Positions 44,549 through 54,301 of a stretch of DNA of 64,000 nt are shown piece after piece; the first letter of the stretch is position 1, and each line of letters starts with the position of its first letter. The translations under genes were made by a program, and so were the position numbers. The DNA lies in assembly GCA_023898525.1 (NCBI GenBank), contig CP060227.1:957932-1021931 (forward strand), read 5' to 3'. The notes under the pieces were generated by a model that did no database searches, was not told the DNA's origin, and saw nothing but the letters and a program-made list of their open reading frames with translations. Source of the stretch: Candidatus Nomurabacteria bacterium. Lineage in GTDB: Bacteria; Patescibacteriota; Minisyncoccia; Phycocordibacterales; UBA918.

Positions 44549-45178
44549 ATGAGAAGGGTATATATAGTTAGGCATGGATTGACTAATAGCGATGCACAGG
44601 GTCTAGTACAAACAGCTGATTCGGCTTTGTCAGAAGAGGGGATTAAACAGGCGGAGGCCCTGGCTGAACGTTTTTGTCATCTTAAGTTTGACCATCTGCT
44701 AGCCAGTGATTACAAGCGGGCGGTAGAGACAGCTGAGTATATATCCGCCAAAACTAAGAAGAAAGTTGAAACTTCAAAGTTGCTGCGAGAAATGCGTCGT
44801 CCTAGTCAGTACCAAAATAGTCCAAGTAGTTCACCCGAATACCGTGCCTATCTAAAATTAGCCGATGAAAATGTGGCGGATAAAAATTGGCGTATGGGTG
44901 ACGGTGAGAATTTTTACGACGTACTTGAAAGGATTAAAGGACTCTTTTCATTAATTGAGGCAAGTGACGGCGATTTTGTTTTAATTACACACGCTCGGAT
45001 GACAAAGTTAATTACACTTTATGTGATGATGAAAAAACAACCAGATCCCCTTGTGTGGCGGATAGTGATGAATAACGTTATAACGACAAATACCGGTATA
45101 ACATCCCTTGTGTTTAATGATAAGCATGGTCACTGGCAACTTGAGAGCTTTAATGATAAGGCACATTTTGCAGAATAA
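44549..45178 (+). CDS. Histidine phosphatase (phosphoglycerate mutase-like) family protein
   Basis: RHG motif (VYIVRHGLT). Confidence 0.65.
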   Translation: MRRVYIVRHGLTNSDAQGLVQTADSALSEEGIKQAEALAERFCHLKFDHLLASDYKRAVETAEYISAKTKKKVETSKLLREMRRPSQYQNSPSSSPEYRAYLKLADENVADKNWRMGDGENFYDVLERIKGLFSLIEASDGDFVLITHARMTKLITLYVMMKKQPDPLVWRIVMNNVITTNTGITSLVFNDKHGHWQLESFNDKAHFAE

Positions 45179-45200
45179 TAATTTAGATAATTAAGAAAAT

Positions 45201-45821
45201 ATGGATGTTTACCTTATACGCCATGGAGAGACTGATGGAAATGTCGCCAGACGACACCAGCACGACAAGACCGATATAAATGAGATCGGTACGGCGCAAA
45301 CTAAAGCGATTGCTAAAGCTATAAAGCGAATCAACCCAACTCATATTGTGACCAGTACCAATTTGCGAGCAGTGGAGACAGCGAAACTGATTATAATCAC
45401 TTGTGAACTAGACCTGATACCAGAGACCAGCACGGCCTTTGAAGAGATACGGCGACCAAGCTGGCTCATTGGCAGTAGTCATTTTAGCCTTATTTCAGCC
45501 CAGTATATGTGGCATTGGTTTTTTGATTATAAGTTGAAAGGGGAGATGGAAACCTATACCCCTTTCCTTGGACGTATTATTGAAGCTAAGCGGTATTTAG
45601 AATCATTGCCAGACGATGCGCGAGTAGTTGTAGTATCGCACTCAGTTTTTATCAATATCTTTCTTGAGCACCTTTGTGTTGAAAAAAGAATGAGTTTTTG
45701 GCGAGCGATGAAGCGTCTCTGGAAGGTATTTACCATGCCTAATACTAGTATGATTCATCTGCGTCACGTGCATTCTGAGGGTGGTTGCCACTGGGAAATT
45801 GTGTCTGATAGGGTTAAGTAA
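45201..45821 (+). CDS. Histidine phosphatase family protein (paralogue)
   Basis: RHG motif (VYLIRHGET). Confidence 0.65.
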   Translation: MDVYLIRHGETDGNVARRHQHDKTDINEIGTAQTKAIAKAIKRINPTHIVTSTNLRAVETAKLIIITCELDLIPETSTAFEEIRRPSWLIGSSHFSLISAQYMWHWFFDYKLKGEMETYTPFLGRIIEAKRYLESLPDDARVVVVSHSVFINIFLEHLCVEKRMSFWRAMKRLWKVFTMPNTSMIHLRHVHSEGGCHWEIVSDRVK

Positions 45822-45930
45822 AATAATCCTGAGTAACTAATGTAACCATAGTGCATATCCTACACTTGAAACTTACGCTCATTATGGCACTATAGTGCGA
45901 CGTGCACTATTTGTAGCACAGATTTATTTT

Positions 45931-46005
45931 TGCCGGATCGTTTGGTAGTAGGACTCCGTAAAACAGTCTCCCAGACTGTTTTACCTAGTACTGTCTATCG
46001 GTTTT
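45931..46005 (+). pseudogene. Degenerate tRNA-Gln-like copy in which hairpin H replaces the anticodon arm
   Basis: tgccggatcgtttggtagtaggac + CCGTAAAACAGTCTCCCAGACTGTTTTACCTAGT + actgtctatcggttttgattgg. The T-arm is degenerate. Confidence 0.55.
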
Positions 46006-46055
46006 GATTGGTTGAAATAAACCATGAGCAAATAATAAATCACAACAAACAACAT

Positions 46056-46075
46056 TGCCGGATCGTCTAATGGTA
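46056..46075 (+). other. 5'-half fragment (20 nt) of tRNA-Gln
   Basis: tgccggatcgtctaatggta is identical to 46141-46160. Confidence 0.7.
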
Positions 46076-46103
46076 TGTGAACATACAAACTGCGTTCGTA
46101 CGG

Positions 46104-46244
46104 AAACAAAAGAGGTATTTTAAATATTCATGTCTATCGCTGCCGGATCGTCTAATGGTAGGACTACGGTTTCTGGTACCGTCTATCGGGGTTCGAGTCC
46201 CTGTCCGGCAGCGATGGTCGGGAATTAAAATACCTCTTTTGTTT
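46104..46244. repeat. Perfect 20-bp inverted repeats bracketing the intact tRNA-Gln
   Basis: aaacaaaagaggtattttaa (46104-46123) and ttaaaatacctcttttgttt (46225-46244). Confidence 0.8.
46141..46211 (+). tRNA. tRNA-Gln(CTG)
   Basis: Manual fold: acceptor TGCCGGA/TCCGGCA, anticodon stem ACGGT/ACCGT, loop TTCTGGT, T-arm CGGGG-TTCGAGT-CCCTG. Confidence 0.8.
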
Positions 46245-46270
46245 TTCTCACTCACATTGTTTGTTGTTTT

Positions 46271-46342
46271 AGGACTCCGTAAAACAGTCTCCCAGACTTT
46301 TACCTAGTACCGTCTATCGGGGTTCGAGTCCCTGTCCGGCAG
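46271..46342 (+). pseudogene. 3' portion of a tRNA-Gln-like gene carrying hairpin H followed by an exact copy of the tRNA-Gln 3' 34 nt
   Basis: aggac + hairpin H (46279-46303) + accgtctatcggggttcgagtccctgtccggcag, identical to 46178-46211. Confidence 0.6.
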
Positions 46343-46429
46343 CAAATGTAAAAAGAATAGCTTCTACCTTATTTTTGGAAGTTTTTATATGGTCTATGTA
46401 CAAAATTATTGTGATAAACTGATATTGCT

Positions 46430-47410
46430 ATGCCAAAAAAGAAAGAGATTGGTCCAATGGTCATTTACCAAACAAAGTCTGGTGCGCTTGAATTGCGTGG
46501 GGATGCGAAGAAAGAGACTTTGTGGGCGACTCAAGCTCAGATTGCACAAGCATTTGATGTTGATGTACGTACTATAAACGAGCATATAAAAAATATTTAT
46601 AAGACTGAGGAGCTGTTTGAGAAGTCAACTATCCGGAAATTCCGGATAGTTCAAACTGAAGGGAAGCGTACGGTTAAACGTGAAATGAATCACTATAATC
46701 TAGATATGATTATTTCGGTTGGTTATCGAGTAAACAGTAAGAAGGCGACTCAATTTCGTCAATGGTCCACCAAGACACTTCGTGAACATATTGTCAAGGG
46801 TTACACTATAAATCGTAAGCGAATAGGACATAATTACGATATTTTTATGAAGGCTGTAGCGGACGTTCAGGCACTACTACCTGAACATGTCACTCTTGAC
46901 CCTAAGACAGTACTTGAACTTATTAAGGAGTTTGCTTCAACGTGGGTTTCACTTGATGCATATGACAAAGAATCTCTAGAAATCAAAGGGGTGACCAAAA
47001 AGCGTGTGACGCTTGTGGGTGCGGATTTACGCAATGCGATCAATGAGCTTAAGTACGAACTTGTGCGTAAAGGTGAGGCTGCTGATATATTTGCGTCTGA
47101 ACGTAGAGAGGGAGATGTGGAAGGTATTGTTGGAAATGTTATGCAGTCTTTTGATGGAAAGTTCGTATATTCTACAGTAGAAGAAAAAGCTGCTCATCTT
47201 CTATATTTTATGGTCAAGAATCACCCATTCATCGACGGAAATAAAAGGTCTGGTGCTTTTGCGTTTGTATGGTTTCTTAGAAAGACAGGTGTACGTGGAG
47301 CTAAAAATATAAACCCAGCAGCCCTCACAACCCTAACTCTTCTTATTGCAGAAAGTGATCCAAAGCAAAAGGATCAAATTGTTGCTTTGGTAACTCAAAT
47401 GTTGAAGTAG
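46430..47410 (+). CDS. RhuM-family N-terminal domain fused to a Fic/Doc domain
   Basis: Fic motif HPFIDGNKRSG. The N-terminal region is RhuM-like (…NHYNLDMIISVGYRVNS…). Confidence 0.75.
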   Translation: MPKKKEIGPMVIYQTKSGALELRGDAKKETLWATQAQIAQAFDVDVRTINEHIKNIYKTEELFEKSTIRKFRIVQTEGKRTVKREMNHYNLDMIISVGYRVNSKKATQFRQWSTKTLREHIVKGYTINRKRIGHNYDIFMKAVADVQALLPEHVTLDPKTVLELIKEFASTWVSLDAYDKESLEIKGVTKKRVTLVGADLRNAINELKYELVRKGEAADIFASERREGDVEGIVGNVMQSFDGKFVYSTVEEKAAHLLYFMVKNHPFIDGNKRSGAFAFVWFLRKTGVRGAKNINPAALTTLTLLIAESDPKQKDQIVALVTQMLK

Positions 47411-47464
47411 TGGGAGTTTTTAATATTAAAGTAGCTAATGTGATGTGGGTGTTGATGGGCAGGT

Positions 47465-48127
47465 ATGGGTAGACTTAGATACTGCCAAGGAATATATGGA
47501 ATCAAAGTGTTAAAAGGTTCTCAATCTACACCAGCTTTTGATATACTTACATGCATGAAAACAGCAATCATTATTCACGGAATGCCTGGCAAGGAAGGAT
47601 ATTTTAATCCAGAAAACGACGCTGAATCTAACTGTCATTGGTTACCTTGGATTCAAAGACAGCTTATTGTAAATGGTATTTTAGCTCAAACCCCCGAAAT
47701 GCCTGAGCCTTATACTCCAAATTATGAAAAATGGTTTTCACTGTTCTCTCAATTCAAGGTGGATGAGCAAACAGACCTTATTGGACATAGTTGCGGGGCA
47801 GGATTTTTACTACGCTGGCTTAGTGAAAATAAATTATCGGTCGGTAAGTTGGTTCTTGTTGCTCCATGGATGGATCCAGATAATGAACTGGGAGACGATA
47901 ATAGTTTTTTTGACTTCGAAATAGACCCTGAGTTGGTTCAAAGAACTAAAGGAATATACACCTTTAATTCTTTAGATGACGATCGTGCTGTTCATGAAAG
48001 TGTTAGAAATATTCTTGAAAAACTACCTAAAAGCAATTTGATTGAGATGAAGAACATGGGACACTTCACTTTTTCTTCTATGCGCACGAGAGAATTTCCC
48101 GAACTTGCTACTGCTTTACTCAAATAA
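47465..48127 (+). CDS. Alpha/beta hydrolase (serine hydrolase, YdeN-like)
   Basis: GxSxG motif GHSCGAG. 220 aa. Confidence 0.55.
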   Translation: MGRLRYCQGIYGIKVLKGSQSTPAFDILTCMKTAIIIHGMPGKEGYFNPENDAESNCHWLPWIQRQLIVNGILAQTPEMPEPYTPNYEKWFSLFSQFKVDEQTDLIGHSCGAGFLLRWLSENKLSVGKLVLVAPWMDPDNELGDDNSFFDFEIDPELVQRTKGIYTFNSLDDDRAVHESVRNILEKLPKSNLIEMKNMGHFTFSSMRTREFPELATALLK

Positions 48128-48199
48128 GCATTTATGTAGTTGTTTACTGAGTAAAACACGAAGGAGTGATGAGAGGAGGGTTGGATAATTGTAGTTGCT

Positions 48200-48325
48200 C
48201 CTAGGCTGGACCTCGTGGTAAATACTTGGTTTGTGAGGATTACGGAGCGATAAGGATTGTTGATGTTGGGGTTTGAGGGTGTTTGGCGAAAATGGTGGCT
48301 GAACCTGTTTCTGTGACCCCATTAC
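48200..48325 (+). repeat. Intergenic repeat B copy 1
   Basis: ...GGTTTGTGAGGATTACGGAGCGATAAGGATTGTTGATGTTGGGGTTTGAGGGTGTTTGGCGAAAATGGTGGCTGA... preceded by a half-palindrome cctaggctggacctcg. Confidence 0.65.
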
Positions 48326-48411
48326 TGCTATTTCCCTGTATAATCTAGTATAGTATAGTTGCTAAAATTATTCATAATAATGGAAATATTCTATTTACAA
48401 CCTTAAATAAC

Positions 48412-49083
48412 ATGCCAAATGAAGTTATCTTTTTTTTAATTTTATCAATTGACCTCGCACTTATTCTTTTCGCATTTAGACTTGGAAAGGAGTGGTTGTT
48501 CGCTGCAATTGCAGCGAACATGATTATTGTGAATTTTACATCATCTTTGCTTATTCCATTATTTGGCTTTGTTGCAAGTGCGGCTGCTGTTACATATGCA
48601 GCAATTTTTTTAGCAACAGATATTCTTACTGAGCATTATGGAAAGAAAGAAGGTTATAAATCTGTATGGATTGCATTCACAATGACATTGCTGTTTGTAG
48701 TTATAACGCAGTTAGTTTTATCATTTGATTCTATTTCTGACACAGCGTCTCTTAGTGAGTCGATGAGAAAAGCGTTAGAAGCAAGCCCCAGAATTGCTTT
48801 GGCAGGATTAACGGCATACCTTGTCGCTCAGAACTTTGATATTTGGTTTTATCATTTAATTCATTCAAAAACTGGTCCGAGACTTCTTTGGCTTCGCAAC
48901 AACTTGAGTACTATGGTTTCTCAAGCGATTGACTCTGTTATATTTTTCTCAATTGCATTTGTCGGAGTACTTCCATTTGTAGTAATTGTACAACTTATTA
49001 TAACTGGGTATGTAGCAAAGCTTGTGGTGGCTGTTATTGATACTCCTTTTGTTTATTTAAGTTATCTGATTAAAAAGAAGTAA
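48412..49083 (+). CDS. Putative queuosine-precursor transporter (YhhQ/DUF165-like)
   Basis: 223 aa, six TM helices and DUF165-like topology. Confidence 0.45.
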   Translation: MPNEVIFFLILSIDLALILFAFRLGKEWLFAAIAANMIIVNFTSSLLIPLFGFVASAAAVTYAAIFLATDILTEHYGKKEGYKSVWIAFTMTLLFVVITQLVLSFDSISDTASLSESMRKALEASPRIALAGLTAYLVAQNFDIWFYHLIHSKTGPRLLWLRNNLSTMVSQAIDSVIFFSIAFVGVLPFVVIVQLIITGYVAKLVVAVIDTPFVYLSYLIKKK

Positions 49084-49149
49084 AGTAAACGGTAGTAATA
49101 GGAAAATGAGGATAAGTATAATGTTTTAACATTAGAGTGTTAATTCTCT

Positions 49150-49256
49150 CGAGGTCCATCCTAGGGGTTCCCCCAGGATGGACCTCGGGGTCTGTAAGGA
49201 TAATGGAGCGATAAGGATTGTTGGTGCTGGGGTTTGAGGGTGGGTGATGTAGCCGT
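49150..49256 (+). repeat. Intergenic repeat B copy 2 (3' part replaced by a MITE insertion)
   Basis: Perfect palindrome cgaggtccatcctagggg-ttc-ccccaggatggacctcgg followed by GGAGCGATAAGGATTGTTGGTGCTGGGGTTTGAGGGTG. Confidence 0.65.
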
Positions 49257-49389
49257 GGTACCTGTGCTAATTAATTTCTTTAGAAAATAACTGAGGAACC
49301 ACCTTTTCCCGTTGCTCTCACCACTCCTCTTTAAGGTCGCACCTCCGTTATTTTCTTTATTTTACTTGATTTTAATTAGCACAGGTGCC
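49257..49389 (+). mobile_element. MITE-1 (133 bp) with 18-bp terminal inverted repeats GGTACCTGTGCTAATTAA / TTAATTAGCACAGGTGCC
   Basis: Perfect TIRs. The internal core 49298-49358 is shared with 10213-10279 and with 36820-36890 (inverted). Inserted into repeat B copy 2. Confidence 0.6.
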
Positions 49390-49465
49390 AGCCGTAATGG
49401 TTGACATAAGACATTATTTGTGTTATCTTATGGTTGGCAATTTCGCCTACAAACAGGAGAAATAA

Positions 49466-50392
49466 ATGTACAAAAAACTATGTGCAATTTTAATTTTCGT
49501 AGCAATATTTTTGTCCGGCTGTTCAACAGAGTCAATTAACGGAGGTGAAGTTGGTGTTATCCAAGATAAACCCTTTTTCTTTGGAAATGAAGGTTTTCGA
49601 GAACATGTTGAACCGCAAGGTAGAGTTGTTACCTGGCTCACTTCAGATATTCACAAAGTATTCATAGCACCACAAACGATACGGATATCTGTAGATGATC
49701 TAATGTCAAAAGATAAAGTACCTTTAGATTTTGACATTGCCGTAACCATAGAATCAACTAGTCCGGAAACTGTGTGGAAAATGCTTAGTCAGTACGGTGG
49801 AGGAGTCACACATACATTTAACAAGTTTGTCTTACAAGGCACCTACACACAAGAAGGTGTTTTAATTAGGCCAACAGGTGAATTTATGAGTCACCTTCGC
49901 GATAAGGTAAAGACTTACGCAATGGACGAGTATGTAGTAGGTCAAACAATGGAAGGTAAGACATCTTCTGCCAGTAAGGACACAGAAGAATCTCTTGTTT
50001 CTTACGTTAATAGTTTTTTGGAAAGCAGAGGTGTTGAAATCAGGGTTGTGAATATAGCTTTAGGAAGAGCGATACCTCCACAGGGTGTAAAAGACTCTAT
50101 GGAAAGGACTGCAGAGCAAATACAAAGAGTGAGAACAGAAGCAGAAAGAGAGCAGGCTGAAATCTCACGAAAGAATGCAGAAAAGGCTGCAGCTGATGCA
50201 GATAAACAATATATGGAAGAACTTGGTATAACTTCTGAGCAGTACTTAAAAATCAGAGAACTGCAGATGGTTGAAAACGTTTGCGGTAAATCAGCAAAAG
50301 ATCTAAAAGATAATGATCAACAAGGTAATAAACCTCGTTGTATGCTGGTTTATGGCCAAGCCTTACCAACAATAAGTACATCAATGGATTAA
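49466..50392 (+). CDS. SPFH/band-7 domain lipoprotein
   Basis: Lipobox LSGCS, SPFH core and a C-terminal coiled-coil. 308 aa. Confidence 0.65.
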   Translation: MYKKLCAILIFVAIFLSGCSTESINGGEVGVIQDKPFFFGNEGFREHVEPQGRVVTWLTSDIHKVFIAPQTIRISVDDLMSKDKVPLDFDIAVTIESTSPETVWKMLSQYGGGVTHTFNKFVLQGTYTQEGVLIRPTGEFMSHLRDKVKTYAMDEYVVGQTMEGKTSSASKDTEESLVSYVNSFLESRGVEIRVVNIALGRAIPPQGVKDSMERTAEQIQRVRTEAEREQAEISRKNAEKAAADADKQYMEELGITSEQYLKIRELQMVENVCGKSAKDLKDNDQQGNKPRCMLVYGQALPTISTSMD

Positions 50393-50405
50393 AATTTCAT
50401 TGTTA

Positions 50406-50431
50406 AATCCCCGACAACCTCGGGGATTTAT
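50406..50431 (+). terminator. Intrinsic terminator
   Basis: aaatccccga-caacc-tcggggattt followed by ATTTATG. Confidence 0.55.
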
Positions 50432-50461
50432 TTATGTTTTTGTAGTTTTTACTTTATTTTG

Positions 50462-50600
50462 TCCCGAGGGTAACCCTCGGGATAGGTTTGGTTTGTGAAG
50501 AAGGTGGAGCGATAAGGATTGTTGATGCTGGGGTTTGAGGGTGGTTGGTGAAAATGGTGGCTGACCCCATTTACTCATTTACTCATTTACTCATTTACTG
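50462..50600 (+). repeat. Intergenic repeat B copy 3 plus CATTTACT tandem repeats (x4)
   Basis: Palindrome cccgagggt-aa-ccctcggg then ...GGAGCGATAAGGATTGTTGATGCTGGGGTTTGAGGGTGGTTGGTGAAAATGGTGGCTGACCCC, followed by catttactcatttactcatttact. Confidence 0.65.
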
Positions 50601-50731
50601 GCTGACCCTATTTACTGCGTTTATCCCATTTATCATTATGTATATATCAAAGATGACGGATATACCACCATTTAAACTTTTACCTTGTCTGTGAGTTTAC
50701 AATTTATAATTATGGCGTATATTAGATATAT

Positions 50732-51448
50732 ATGGAAGATAATTCTTTGGTTTTTCTTTCGAGTCATATAGCTCTGAGCTTTGAAAAGCCTTTACTCTCA
50801 CCTGAAAACCATTATGTTGATTTGAATACCAAAATGAAGGGTATTTTTGGTGATTCTCCCGATATTAATCCAGTACCATTTGTAAGTAACGATAGAGAAT
50901 TATTAGATTCTCCTGTGGTTCAGGCTGTGTCAGAAGATGGTAAATATCAGTTAAATATAGCCAGAGGCAGAATAGACTTCTATAGACATGCAACACTTAA
51001 CGAGATTGCATTTTCTGACACAAAAGAAGATTTCTTAGCAAAAGCGTTACAGATTACAGAAATAACAACATCTTCTTTGGGTGTAAAGTGGATGGGCTTT
51101 GTTGTTGCTTATATTTACGTAAATAATAATCTAAAAACTGTATCTCACAACGTTTTAAATTCAGATATCGTAGATATAAATCCTGGAGATTCAAATTCAT
51201 TCTTTGCTAGAAATACTAACAAAATAAATGTGGGTAAAGTTTTATCAAACAACTTAATTGCAATTGGGTCTGGAACTGCCAGTAAGGAAAAACAAGAGCC
51301 GGTACAAGGTATTATGATAAATCAAGATTTTAACACAAGAGCTTCAGAGAATATTATTGATAAGGACTTTGTTAAATTATACATTGATGAATCAGAAAAA
51401 CTTATTAAGGTAGGTGAAGTTTTAAGAATCCTAAAAATTATTATATGA
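50732..51448 (+). CDS. Hypothetical protein (238 aa), first gene of an AT-rich three-gene operon
   Basis: ORF only. Overlaps the next gene by 4 nt (ATGA). Confidence 0.5.
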   Translation: MEDNSLVFLSSHIALSFEKPLLSPENHYVDLNTKMKGIFGDSPDINPVPFVSNDRELLDSPVVQAVSEDGKYQLNIARGRIDFYRHATLNEIAFSDTKEDFLAKALQITEITTSSLGVKWMGFVVAYIYVNNNLKTVSHNVLNSDIVDINPGDSNSFFARNTNKINVGKVLSNNLIAIGSGTASKEKQEPVQGIMINQDFNTRASENIIDKDFVKLYIDESEKLIKVGEVLRILKIII

Positions 51449-51987
51449 GTCTAGCTATACAGAATTATTCTTACAATACATCTGGCAAGACAGCTTTCAG
51501 AGATTTTTTTGTAAATGATAGTACTGCTGGCATACCTAGTCCTTATGCTAAGAGGTTTATTTATACAAATCGTTATGATTACGTACATTCATTTAAGCCA
51601 GAGGGTCCTATTTTTGATACCGATATTAGTAGAGGAAAAAAAGCGTCTGAGCTAAATAAAAAAATAGTTTCAAATTATTTAGATGCTTTTCAAATTGAAA
51701 ATTCAATAATAAAACCAGAAAAAGTTAGAAGTTTTTTGATTAAAAACAGAAGTATTTTTGGTAAATTAACCAAGTTGATAACACTTGCTCTGGCAGATTA
51801 TCAAGATTTGATAGAGAGTATATGTTTGAGGGTTTTAGCTGATGAATCAGGTAAGCAGGAGTTTGTACTAGTTGAATTTAATTTGAACGAAGAAATTGAT
51901 GTAGATGATTCAATAGAGATAGATGATGATTTTAAGTATAAAAACCCTGATTTGTCCAATAATCTAATAAATTTTGATTTTGTATAA
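51445..51987 (+). CDS. Hypothetical protein (180 aa, acidic C-terminus), second gene of the operon
   Basis: ORF only. Overlaps the next gene by 1 nt (TAATG). Confidence 0.5.
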   Translation: MSLAIQNYSYNTSGKTAFRDFFVNDSTAGIPSPYAKRFIYTNRYDYVHSFKPEGPIFDTDISRGKKASELNKKIVSNYLDAFQIENSIIKPEKVRSFLIKNRSIFGKLTKLITLALADYQDLIESICLRVLADESGKQEFVLVEFNLNEEIDVDDSIEIDDDFKYKNPDLSNNLINFDFV

Positions 51988-52391
51988 TGTCTTTTGATTG
52001 GAATAATTATTTAGAGTTAGCAAAAGTTTTAAGAGATGACTCTACAGTTGTAACAAATAATTTAACTGAAGCACAGCAAAGGTCGTCGGTCAGTAGAGTA
52101 TATTATTCAGCTTATAATTTAGTTCTTTCTCACGCAAAAACCCTAGGCTATTCTTTCCCGTACTTAAGAGATTCTAAAACAGGTAAACCTCTTACGGGTT
52201 CCCATGCTGATCTGATACAATTTTGCAAAGACCATACAGATCCTGTTATTAACAATATAGCCCGAGATCTTGAGTCTTGCAGGAATTCTAGAGTAATAGC
52301 GGACTACGAAGATGATTTTCCCGAATTAAATAAGAAAAACAAAATTGCGATTAAAAAAGTAACGAGGATTTTAAAAGTGCTTAATCCATAG
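51987..52391 (+). CDS. Hypothetical protein (134 aa, alpha-helical; weak HEPN/Abi-like flavour, unverified), third gene of the operon
   Basis: ORF only. The C-terminal segment ...ESCRNSRVIADYEDDF... is suggestive but not a canonical Rx4-6H motif. Confidence 0.45.
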   Translation: MSFDWNNYLELAKVLRDDSTVVTNNLTEAQQRSSVSRVYYSAYNLVLSHAKTLGYSFPYLRDSKTGKPLTGSHADLIQFCKDHTDPVINNIARDLESCRNSRVIADYEDDFPELNKKNKIAIKKVTRILKVLNP

Positions 52392-52541
52392 ATTAGCTTT
52401 TTTATTACTTGGTTTTAAATTACAAATAGGTAAAAAACAACAAGCAACTAAAATCTACTCTCTACTCTTATTGCAATAAACCCCTACCTAAATTACTATA
52501 ATGTACACACGTATACTAACAGTAATAATTTCAAATAAAAT

Positions 52542-53090
52542 ATGTCCTTACTAAACACTCTTAATCTTTTGTTTGCTTCTGGTGGACTCGTTTTGGCGGT
52601 GGTGACCATTGGCTTGTATGTAGATTATTTCTATAACCAAAGTAAGTTTTTTGACCGTTGGCTGGCTCGGTTTGCTTGGTCGATTGTTATGGTGACTACT
52701 ATCGGTAGTGTAGCTATTACACTTCTATACTCGGAGTATTTTGGTTTTGTGCCATGTTCACTTTGTTGGTTGCAACGGATTGCCATGTATCCGCAGGCTT
52801 TGCTTTCGGTGATGGCTTTCAGAATGAAGGAGCGCGTATTTTTCCCGCTATACAGTATTGCTTTGTCGGTATTTGGTTTTGTGGTCGCTGTCTATCACTA
52901 CATCTACCAAATGCAACCAAAAGAAGAATTGGCTAACGGCGTCATGCCTTGCTTGGCTGATGGTTCGGCTGACTGTGCGACTAAGGTGATTGATATGTTC
53001 GGCTTTGTGACCTTCCCGCTATTGTCCGCGATAACTTTCGCTTTCTTGATTGTGGTGTATTTGAATATGCGGAGGGGAGGGAGAGAATAG
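52542..53090 (+). CDS. Disulfide bond formation protein B (DsbB/BdbC family)
   Basis: Four TM helices with Cys pairs CSLC and PC...C in the periplasmic loops. Confidence 0.7.
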   Translation: MSLLNTLNLLFASGGLVLAVVTIGLYVDYFYNQSKFFDRWLARFAWSIVMVTTIGSVAITLLYSEYFGFVPCSLCWLQRIAMYPQALLSVMAFRMKERVFFPLYSIALSVFGFVVAVYHYIYQMQPKEELANGVMPCLADGSADCATKVIDMFGFVTFPLLSAITFAFLIVVYLNMRRGGRE

Positions 53091-53153
53091 GTCTTCACTT
53101 TTTCGTTTTTATCCTTAGAACTAAACAGGCTAGGGAAAATAAAATTAGCGCAT

Positions 53154-53187
53154 TAAAAAACAACCGGATGAACGGTTGTTTTTTTAA
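53154..53187. terminator. Bidirectional terminator
   Basis: aaaaaacaaccg-gatgaa-cggttgttttttt. Confidence 0.65.
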
Positions 53188-53192
53188 TGCGC

Positions 53193-53285
53193 TTATTCGT
53201 TGCCGCTTCCTGCCACATCATCACCTTCAGGCTGTCCAACTCCATCGTCGGGTTCAACAGCTGGGTTCTCTTCACGATCTTCCAT
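53193..53285 (-). CDS. Small acidic peptide (30 aa), not in the ORF track
   Basis: MEDREENPAVEPDDGVGQPEGDDVAGSGNE. Ends directly at the terminator. Confidence 0.25.
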   Translation of the reverse strand: MEDREENPAVEPDDGVGQPEGDDVAGSGNE

Positions 53286-53430
53286 ATATTTATTCTAAAT
53301 TTTATATACGAATAAAATTCGACCGTCACTCTTACTATTATACACGATTGATTGTTATGTATTGAGTTGTTAATTTAATTATGTATTTAGTAAAATTGGC
53401 TCTAGCTCAAAGTTAATATATAATCACAGC

Positions 53431-53847
53431 ATGAAAAGGATAATAATTTGCTGTTCAATATCAGTATCTGGTGACGTTTTACCTATTAAAAAAGATTTAG
53501 AAAAAATGGGTTTTGCAGTAGAAATTCCTTTTGGTGTTCAACAATATATTGATAACGGATATAAACATATAAGTGAGACTGAAAGAATGCAGAATAAAAT
53601 AGATATGGATTTAATTACTCGCTACTACAAAAGGATACAGGATAGCGATTATGTACTTATTATAAATACAGAGAAGGGGGGGAAAGAAAATTATATTGGT
53701 GGAAATACCTTTCTTGAGATGGGATTTGCTCACGTTCTAGGTAAACCTATGTTTGTTTTGAATCCATTGCCAGAAGTTTCTTATCGGGATGAGCTAGAGG
53801 CTATGAACTTAAAGGTTATTAACGGTGATTTGGGGTTGATAAAGTAG
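53431..53847 (+). CDS. Nucleoside 2-deoxyribosyltransferase-like protein (NDT/Rcl fold) paralogue 1
   Basis: Motif IGGNTFLEMGFAHVLGKPMFVL, matching the NDT-family catalytic Glu context. Confidence 0.55.
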   Translation: MKRIIICCSISVSGDVLPIKKDLEKMGFAVEIPFGVQQYIDNGYKHISETERMQNKIDMDLITRYYKRIQDSDYVLIINTEKGGKENYIGGNTFLEMGFAHVLGKPMFVLNPLPEVSYRDELEAMNLKVINGDLGLIK

Positions 53848-53896
53848 TTTTGCATCCAATAAGATCCCTGTTGATTTTTTGTTATAATACAAACTA

Positions 53897-54301
53897 ATGA
53901 ACAACTTCTCGCACCAAGCTTTAGAACTAAAAGAAGAATGGCCTTTGGTCTATACGGCCATGTCTAAGCATTTGTTTTATTACCGAATGTTTATTTCAAA
54001 ATACGTGTTGGAGCAGAGCGCTGTACCACTGAATCCTTTTATGGTGTTTGACTACTTTATGCTTGATGTTGTTGATCGGGATCTGGTGCGACAGGGTAAC
54101 AACAGTATGGTCAGGCGGAGTGATGAAATCTGGGTGTTTGGTCCGGTTAGTAACGGGGTTTTGGCTGAAGTGCAGATCGCTAAAGAGCAAGGAAAACCGG
54201 TGAAGTACTTTAAAACAGATAAGCCTCATACCATAATTTCGATAGATAAATTGGAAGTGGAAATGGAAGATGAGGTGAAGGAGTTTAGGGAGAGTCTGTA
54301 A
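53897..54301 (+). CDS. Nucleoside 2-deoxyribosyltransferase-like protein paralogue 2
   Basis: Motif VFGPVSNGVLAEVQIAKEQGKPVKYF. Confidence 0.55.
   Translation: MNNFSHQALELKEEWPLVYTAMSKHLFYYRMFISKYVLEQSAVPLNPFMVFDYFMLDVVDRDLVRQGNNSMVRRSDEIWVFGPVSNGVLAEVQIAKEQGKPVKYFKTDKPHTIISIDKLEVEMEDEVKEFRESL

Follow-up and report, generated by a model that had tools for sequence, protein, structure and literature searches.

The window analyzed here is a 64,000-nucleotide stretch of the genome of a Candidatus Nomurabacteria bacterium (contig CP060227.1, positions 957,932 to 1,021,931), and our subject is a compact operon of three genes within it, which we call A, B and C. In databases their products are recorded as hypothetical proteins H6779_05035/40/45 of Candidatus Nomurabacteria, a member of the Candidate Phyla Radiation (CPR). 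The original prediction described three coupled open reading frames (ORFs) of 238, 180 and 134 aa as a candidate accessory or defence system. Both their coordinates and their junctions were confirmed, and a putative promoter precedes them:

50732–51448, + strand, gene A, ORF of 238 aa
51445–51987, + strand, gene B, ORF of 180 aa
51987–52391, + strand, gene C, ORF of 134 aa
50696..50723, + strand, sigma-70-like promoter (−35 TTTACA at 50696–50701, 16-nt spacer, −10 TATATT at 50718–50723)

A and B overlap by 4 nt in an ATGA junction (TTATATGAGT; the longer stretch across A/B is TATATGAGT), and B and C overlap by 1 nt in a TAATG junction (GTATAATGTC). As had been noted earlier, the region is AT-rich: its GC content is 31.4% versus 40.1% for the window, corresponding to the 0.9th percentile among 1660-nt segments, and the segment of this size with the lowest GC content in the whole stretch begins at 50901. 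A tRNA-Gln(CTG) gene (46141–46212) is located 4.5 kb upstream of the operon, which has ordinary genes around it (yhhQ, an SPFH gene and a dsbB-like gene). In a consensus scan the promoter scored 10 of 12 matches. Since 8 nt separate its −10 element from the ATG of A, the mRNA, with a start site predicted from the promoter, is probably leaderless or nearly so and translationally coupled. No Shine–Dalgarno sequence is visible 5′ of the A, B or C starts. A GTTTACAATT-N4-AATTATGgcGTATATT block upstream of A is kept in five lineages, in which the identity of A itself is only 43–65%.

A word-index search of 5.8 billion proteins returned only five relatives of A and two each of B and C. Related loci were fetched for comparison and labeled L0xx. 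All relatives with enough contig around them keep the A-B-C order and tight linkage. In the co-occurrence check proposed along with the original prediction, the trio recurs in six independent CPR-type lineages at 31–78% identity, with identical overlaps in four of them. Identity to the window proteins is 65% for A, 59% for B and 78% for C in the L001–L006/L012/L019 group, 45% for A and 42–43% for C in L007, and 43% for A and 45–46% for C in L008–L011/L020, and L014 carries a partial trio. An exhaustive profile search yielded L033 (P0010) and L034/L035 (P0013), where A is followed by matches to the B profiles and to the C profile at 112 and 94 bits. Three conserved proteins in fixed order and tight linkage across six independent lineages show that the genes are real.

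A comparison with the sister Nomurabacteria contig L019 delimits the unit. The two are syntenic over dnaX, His_Phos_1 and tRNA-Gln, after which each carries unrelated cargo, and homology resumes exactly at 50669–52395, that is, over the promoter and operon and nothing else. The module therefore behaves like a separate unit within an island that is linked to a tRNA gene and otherwise variable. Upstream neighbors in the L001 group are DUF4145 and Abi_C genes, PhdYeFM-ParE lies downstream in L008, and L033 has RecO as a neighbor. Among the neighborhoods examined, none represents a conserved metabolic or cell-envelope operon, the setting named as refuting the original prediction; instead, homologs lie near Abi_C/DUF4145, PhdYeFM-ParE, VapBC, restriction–modification genes and recombinases, on plasmids and on viral contigs. 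These shifting surroundings, together with homology, agree with the earlier proposal of a defence or toxin–antitoxin (TA)-like operon. The module is self-contained and horizontally mobile.

Gene C and its partner B

The third gene had been credited with a weak HEPN-like flavor, and homology searches substantiate this. For C alone, the best library match is the PADLOC model HEPN_IX (1e-6), followed by weaker similarities to the Pfam HEPN family PF05168 (18.1 bits, E 0.003, under the cut-off of 22) and, over the full length, to PDC-M05B (E 0.003). C also matches phrog_5176 (7e-8). We then built a profile from nine C-family sequences originating from CPR, Deinococcota (Thermus), Cyanobacteria (Gloeothece) and two viral contigs. 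This profile matched PDB entry 9xbd_A, a 'HEPN domain-containing protein', at 1.3e-5 and the HEPN protein of Retron-Kva2 at 4.3e-4. Moreover, the Thermus ortholog of C (31% identical, from an equivalent operon) scores 27.4 bits on PF05168, over the gathering cut-off of 22, and hhalign relates C to its homolog in L022 with a probability of 96.8% (E 2e-10). Sequence comparison thus places C among HEPN domains of the HEPN-T / type IX-retron class. A literature search on 9XBD/9XBC found nothing relevant.

Fourteen positions are invariant in all nine C sequences: W5, A12, L15, A29, R32, S36, R37, Y39, Y40, A42, H73, R102, D106 and Y107. The last four are of particular relevance for a possible active site:

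52203–52205, + strand, His73, putative catalytic residue, invariant in nine sequences
52290–52292, + strand, Arg102, putative catalytic residue, invariant, aligned to Kva2 R122
52302–52307, + strand, Asp106-Tyr107, invariant, in R102-V-I-A-D106-Y107

The canonical Rx4-6H motif of HEPN nucleases is missing from the C family, which has R102-x3-D106-Y107 and the upstream H73 instead. The original prediction, according to which no protein of the operon has a recognizable catalytic motif, has to be revised in this respect: the alternative His/Arg pair known from HEPN-T / type IX-retron HEPN RNases is present in C. The HEPN protein of Retron-Kva2 likewise has no Rx4-6H, and substitution of either H64A or R122A abolishes both defence and toxicity (bioRxiv 10.64898/2026.07.14.738597). 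According to preprints on type IX retrons, His64 (helix 3) and Arg122 (helix 4) oppose each other across the dimer interface, and the HEPN protein cuts tRNA and rRNA, with the winged-helix (WH)/KH helix-turn-helix (HTH) protein and msDNA occluding its active site and thereby silencing it. Exactly this arrangement is known for AF0298-like HEPN-T and AbiV proteins, which retain the Arg, have Asp in place of the His and conserve a second His upstream, proposed as the alternative catalytic residue (Anantharaman et al. 2013). In our alignments R102 of C coincides with Kva2 R122 (SRVIADYE versus VRGIVDYE), and H73 is aligned exactly to the His of 9xbd. H73 is thus likely the equivalent of Kva2 H64, and C is most likely an RNA-cutting toxin with a non-canonical HEPN active site.

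What could control such a toxin? C is basic (isoelectric point, pI, 8.9), as are seven of the nine C proteins checked, whereas B, encoded immediately upstream, is acidic (pI 4.9), and so are eight of nine B and B-like proteins. An acidic upstream protein paired with a basic downstream one is the usual antitoxin/toxin polarity. The N-terminus of B varies, and its C-terminal core of ~105 residues (about residues 75–180) is conserved. B matched nothing in Pfam, NCBIfam, PADLOC, PHROGs or PDB, including HTH or KH families in Pfam, and the B profile returned nothing from PDB at E<=10. G-alpha matches obtained in PDB with a B-like profile were rejected as spurious, and an AlphaFold2 model of B built from the single sequence was unusable (predicted local distance difference test, pLDDT, 35).

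Wherever C-type HEPNs were found elsewhere (Thermus, Gloeothece plasmids, L021 and L022), they have an overlapping upstream gene encoding 118–205 aa. By eye, B and these non-CPR upstream proteins share a C-terminal pattern consisting of a helix 'v..fL..n..l', a strand 'l.LeV..DPe', a further strand, a helix and a final 'l.fdF'. The hhalign comparison of a four-sequence B profile with either single B-like sequences or a five-sequence set was not significant. Two B proteins from the exhaustive search serve as intermediates: in a database of ~19 sequences, the CPR profile gives 57 bits for that of L033, and the non-CPR profile gives 11.5 bits for it and 25.8 bits for that of L034. With these intermediates added per side, hhalign aligned CPR B with the non-CPR B-like proteins over 104 collinear columns (E 1e-4, probability 58%). 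We therefore consider, with moderate confidence, that B has, at about residues 75–180, a conserved domain that specifically accompanies C-type HEPNs. In terms of function, B is a putative inhibitor or adaptor of C.

Gene A and the TIGR04255 family

A is acidic (pI 5.2) and has no match in Pfam, NCBIfam or PADLOC, with only a weak similarity to phrog_13579 (2e-4). An exhaustive hidden Markov model (HMM) search of 1.84 billion representatives collected 206 representatives of the A family at E<=1e-3. Among the 150 relatives listed, most are stand-alone proteins of about 220–250 aa. Positions invariant in a 16-member alignment include P24, P49, R78, R80, D82, N173, G193, D199 and N201. In a single peptide pattern search, all four A-family matches in named genomes belong to CPR (Nomurabacteria, Saccharibacteria, Peregrinibacteria and 'Patescibacteria group').

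The AlphaFold2 model of A, obtained with five homologs as the alignment, has a pLDDT of 79 and a predicted TM-score of 0.81. It consists of two tandem strand–helix–three-strand–helix (beta-alpha-beta3-alpha) repeats, resembling the pseudo-dimer of the TATA-binding protein (TBP). In a Foldseek search against PDB the top match was yeast TBP (1tbp_A; E 6e-5, probability 1.0), with a TM-score of only ~0.3. Other PDB matches with like topology were AdoMetDC and the C-domains of guanidino kinases, and the best BFVD match (TM-scores 0.51/0.58) is nameless. We therefore use 'TBP-like' to describe the topology of the model and not to assign family membership.

Among the A-family contexts examined, six, including those of the closest members to the window protein, have B and C after A. 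In seven (L015–L018, L031, L036 and L037), a protein of 155–241 aa takes the place of B and C. Where computed (L015–L018), the N-terminal half of these proteins is polar and rich in lysine/glutamate and is followed by 3–4 hydrophobic segments. That of L018 resembles SLATT_6 (4.6e-4) and the two-transmembrane (2TM) effector of CBASS (9.5e-4), both under the curated thresholds. Operons pairing A with such a transmembrane (TM) protein neighbor MvaI/BcnI restriction–modification genes, a methylase (type III-like) with a ResIII helicase, SDH-type ClpP-like proteases (twice), DUF3467-like genes (twice) and serine recombinases. The replacement of B and C by a multi-TM protein next to more distant A relatives looks like effector swapping.

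In these sister operons an SDH-type ClpP-like serine protease gene (PF01972) directly precedes the A-like+TM pair in two independent lineages (L016 2487–3524 and L031 2972–3997). A small DUF3467-like gene precedes the pair in L015 and L017. The protease and DUF3467-like genes may represent further components of the sister systems. No sister operon was matched as a system by PADLOC.

In two distant lineages, the place of A is taken by a TIGR04255 protein. Both the Thermus brockianus plasmid pTB1 (L023) and the viral contig L022 have a TIGR04255-B-C trio, the first protein being TIGR04255 by score in L022 (84 bits versus the cut-off of 30) and by RefSeq annotation in Thermus. The pTB1 C-type HEPN gene (L023 5294–5686; NZ_CP016313.1 about 201173–201565; 130 aa, GTG start) is intact and passes Pfam HEPN. 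As in the window, it shares one base with its upstream gene. It is not in the PLSDB gene table, which is known to be incomplete. Neighbors of the pTB1 trio are VapBC, a DNA methylase and cas6.

B-C pairs occur on Gloeothece plasmids, there without an A-like gene, and on the viral contig L021. The latter (L021 1–3562; IMGVR_UViG_2515154007_000002) encodes the B-like protein and the C-type HEPN, with a PDC-M63B-like protein upstream (PADLOC 7e-34). Downstream of the pair is a 359-aa protein that appears RES-domain-like by eye. L021 1–3562 is a compact candidate conflict-gene cluster on a viral contig.

Is A itself related to TIGR04255? Window A had no match to NCBIfam TIGR04255.1 (cut-off 30 bits) at E<=1, and a single one of 82 A-family members matches it, at 5.5e-5. 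By its slot, A is the positional counterpart of TIGR04255, and it may be a distant homolog. TIGR04255 genes on plasmids of Rhodococcus, Methylocystis, Acinetobacter, Rhizobium and Crinalium (L026–L030) consistently lead overlapping operons of 2–3 genes. In Rhodococcus and Acinetobacter they are partnered by Xre-type HTH proteins, and in the other plasmids by unknowns; the operons neighbor an Abi-family gene, a multiubiquitin/ThiF/DUF6527 (Bil-like) cluster, a MobF relaxase or insertion sequence elements. We found no published function for TIGR04255 in the literature. In tblastn searches of 50,697 phage genomes, A, C and the L022 C homolog had no match, and the L022 TIGR04255 protein had one marginal match in a Ralstonia phage. 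Scans of IMG/VR for the A family found nothing.

A candidate toxin–antitoxin or abortive-infection module

Taken together, these results make it fairly probable in our view that A, B and C form a tripartite TA or abortive-infection-like module, self-contained and mobile, with C as the effector, B as its partner and A as a sensor or regulator. We infer a role in defence or as a TA system from context and homology, and the RNase activity and toxicity of C, the inhibition partners, the trigger and the anti-phage function are proposed on the same footing. In such a scheme, the operon's own conserved promoter would give rise to a probably leaderless, translationally coupled A-B-C mRNA. C, probably a dimer, would be an RNase effector of the HEPN-T class in which His73 and Arg102 replace Rx4-6H, as in the type IX retron HEPN, and it would cut tRNA and/or rRNA, leading to growth arrest. 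Acidic B, made just before C, would keep C inactive or tether it, thereby filling the slot that belongs to MNT in HEPN-MNT modules and to the WH/KH-HTH protein in type IX retrons. A would serve as the constant subunit, responsible for sensing or regulation, and would drive a multi-pass membrane effector in the sister operons.

HEPN RNases are common effectors in bacterial immunity and TA systems. Here, a HEPN with a type IX-retron-like active site is found without a retron and beside two uncharacterized partners, offering a compact three-protein model for HEPN regulation. If the modular picture outlined below is right, it would add a candidate defence or TA system for CPR, whose tiny genomes are thought to be poor in such systems. 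A literature search on CPR and HEPN defence found nothing relevant.

A broader generalization is conceivable, and we put it forward only tentatively, considering it rather doubtful as it stands. A-like and TIGR04255 proteins could define a widespread, unrecognized modular class of conflict systems, in which a constant ~240-aa subunit of TBP fold heads short coupled operons and is combined with interchangeable effectors (B with a HEPN RNase, multi-TM SLATT-like or Xre-HTH proteins) in CPR, Deinococcota, Cyanobacteria, Proteobacteria and Actinobacteria, on plasmids and in prophages. If so, TIGR04255 would gain a functional context, and the abortive-infection system in the window would be among the few dedicated ones of minimal CPR genomes.

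Several observations weigh against the proposed module. For C, H73 and Kva2 H64 are four residues apart in the HMMER alignment, in a loop of varying length; the matches of window C alone to Pfam HEPN (18 bits versus 22) and to Retron-Kva2 are weak; and C is acidic in two lineages, L007 and L008. In addition, some HEPN-T domains are not nucleases but nucleotide- or substrate-binding partners of nucleotidyltransferases. For B, no recognizable fold or family was found, and its link to the non-CPR partners consists of the 58% hhalign probability and of intermediates scored on a tiny database. For A, the TM-score to TBP is low, and the protein might just as well act as a chaperone, as a transcription factor or as an effector itself. 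The comparison of A4 with seven TIGR04255 sequences in hhalign was not significant (E 0.072, probability <1%) over 76 collinear columns, which align S.D...(helix)...RIGF with RIGLRY. Single TIGR04255 sequences compared with the A family in HMMER and hhalign gave no significance either. When ranked by the TIGR04255 HMM, A-family proteins come just under the true members, at only 1–8 bits (about 0–8 across HMMER tests). Finally, the A-family contexts examined number 11, a small and search-biased sample rather than a census of the ~206 representatives.

We next consider how else the locus might be explained. A plain two-component type II TA system, with B as the antitoxin, C as the HEPN toxin and A as a regulator or passenger, would be an addiction module, serving to stabilize an island or plasmid and not to defend against phage. 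This is in line with the B-C pairs on conjugative and other plasmids of Gloeothece, which lack an A-like gene and in which a small acidic gene overlaps a basic toxin gene downstream of it in the typical manner, and with the TA-type architecture of PDC-M05, which C weakly resembles. Moreover, the AATT-N4-AATT in the promoter spacer is conserved and could be an autoregulatory operator. However, A is kept with B-C, ATGA-coupled, in six CPR lineages, TIGR04255 occupies its slot in two distant lineages, and the A family is coupled to membrane proteins as well, which argues for a partner of effectors and not a passenger. We therefore regard this explanation as unlikely, bearing in mind that TA and abortive-infection roles are compatible.

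Less likely still, C could be a non-catalytic HEPN-T subunit that binds a ligand or substrate. The active component would then be A, acting as an enzyme or as a binder of small molecules or nucleotides through its R78/R80/D82/N173/D199/N201 cluster, and a metabolite or nucleic acid would be modified or sensed, with no RNA being cut. Many PF05168 HEPN domains are indeed binding modules of nucleotidyltransferases, C is without Rx4-6H, the invariant polar residues of A are typical of a binding or catalytic site, and TIGR04255 proteins have varied partners, HTH proteins included. This has to be set against the invariance, in all nine C-family sequences, of the His and Arg required in the nearest characterized relative, and against the lack of any enzymatic family match for A in Pfam, NCBIfam, PADLOC and PDB. 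A lineage-specific CPR housekeeping or RNA-processing operon, or a decaying, functionless prophage remnant, is very improbable: the operon does lie among ordinary genes and A and C do have weak PHROG matches, but its distribution is extremely sporadic, its neighbors change with each lineage, the 50,697 phage genomes hold no match to A or C, and ORFs, overlaps and promoter kept intact at 43–78% protein identity imply purifying selection.

Returning to the tripartite module, we asked how it relates to known systems. A PADLOC check, suggested together with the original prediction, gave a divided answer: C does match the HEPN_IX component, but the operon corresponds to no catalogued system. Against PADLOC-DB v2, A and B had no match and C matched only single components of two systems.

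A close parallel is with type IX retrons (Retron-Kva2, Retron-Yin1). Their HEPN (HEPN_IX) also has no Rx4-6H, a conserved His before helix 3/4 and an Arg in R-x3-D-Y. It is likewise encoded beside an overlapping partner gene, whose product in the retron occludes the active site until the complex is disrupted by a phage factor, resulting in abortive infection. On the other hand, neither a reverse transcriptase nor msr/msd RNA nor a WH/KH-HTH protein is present in A-B-C according to ORFs, Pfam and PADLOC, with Rfam covering 45000–54000. A and B are unlike any retron component, and the HEPN gene is last here and first in the retron. C is also shorter (134 aa versus 174), with ~29 fewer residues between His and Arg. 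With no reverse transcriptase or non-coding RNA at the locus, a retron was ruled out.

HEPN-MNT systems (HepT-MntA; PDC-M05) are similar in that a small PF05168-like HEPN gene overlaps and directly follows its partner gene, and in being plasmid- or island-borne. In contrast, A and B match no nucleotidyltransferase family at E<=1, nor PDC-M05A, which is the nucleotidyltransferase, and A is an extra third gene. This system was accordingly ruled out as well. Because B is not a nucleotidyltransferase, neutralization by AMPylation cannot be assumed. AF0298-like HEPN-T and AbiV proteins share with C (H73 ... R102-VIA-D106-Y107) the retained Arg, the Asp in place of His and the upstream His. They differ in being encoded by solo or MNT-associated genes, with no A- or B-like partners described.

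A looser analogy can be drawn with RnlA-RnlB and LsoA, which combine one or more TBP-like domains, a HEPN RNase and a separate antitoxin, distributed over three separate genes in A-B-C. In some RNase LS proteins, nucleic-acid binding is tentatively attributed to a TBP-like domain at the N-terminus (Anantharaman et al. 2013). However, the HEPNs of RNase LS keep Rx4-6H, no sequence similarity was detected, and RnlA/LsoA are outside the top 50 Foldseek matches of A. TIGR04255 proteins, finally, are about as long as A, lead short coupled operons on plasmids and viral contigs, and sit upstream of B/C homologs in pTB1 and L022. Yet their model does not match window A, and other TIGR04255 operons have Xre-type HTH or unknown partners and not B-C.

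It follows that A-B-C belongs to no type IX retron, HEPN-MNT or RnlA/LsoA system. The class of its effector is known, but three of its features are found in none of PADLOC-DB v2, Pfam, NCBIfam and the searchable literature: the A/TIGR04255-B-HEPN architecture; the B core, which probably represents a new HEPN-associated protein family spanning phyla; and the CPR family of A (~230 aa), of which A is the founder.

The surrounding island

The operon had been placed at the distal end of a tRNA-Gln island, next to the third copy of a repeat and a tandem array, and all these landmarks are where they were expected. Upstream of the module, the island contains:

50404–50430 and 50458–50486, + strand, two terminator-like hairpins at the end of the upstream SPFH gene, the 5′ boundary of the module
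48226–48310, 49187–49271 and 50488–50572, three copies of an 85-nt G/T-rich intergenic repeat, only in this island
50568–50599, perfect CATTTACT x4 tandem array, directly after repeat copy 3 and ~130 nt upstream of the promoter of A

The terminator scan found 3 hairpins versus 0.8 expected. Each copy of the 85-nt repeat lies just 3′ of a GC-rich, terminator-like hairpin ending the preceding gene (a hydrolase gene, yhhQ and the SPFH gene, respectively). The repeat has a 38-nt core, GGAGCGATAAGGATTGTTGNTGNTGGGGTTTGAGGGTG, all specified bases of which are identical in the three copies, with 0 such occurrences expected by chance. It has no Rfam match and no strong fold (z −1.9), and is absent from 30 related loci. 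The repeat might act as a small RNA or regulatory element, or it might be a scar of a mobile element. An integron-like cassette array was ruled out, as the copies show no dyad symmetry and are G/T-rich on one strand. The CATTTACT array is itself inside a looser 41-nt x1.9 repeat at 50558–50637.

The Rfam scan of 45000–54000 found only the tRNA. Partial copies of tRNA-Gln surround it: the 5′ part occurs at 45931–45958 and 46056–46083, and a 40-nt copy of the 3′ end (98% identical) at 46304–46343. In addition, a 32-nt block (TAGGACTCCGTAAAACAGTCTCCCAGACT...) occurs twice, at 45949 and at 46270. The tRNA-like copies (45931–46343) look as if integration had happened repeatedly and left scars, or as if a second tRNA gene had been disrupted, which fits a tRNA-linked island. 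The first gene after the tRNA-Gln cluster (46430–47410) encodes a RhuM-family N-terminus fused to Fic/DOC (Pfam 4.8e-27 and 1.3e-11), a type of protein associated with toxins and mobile elements. On the other side of the operon, two small genes lie just downstream of the dsbB-like gene: one encodes a 138-aa protein with no Pfam match (53431–53847) and the other a DUF7768 protein (53897–54301; Pfam 7.9e-9).

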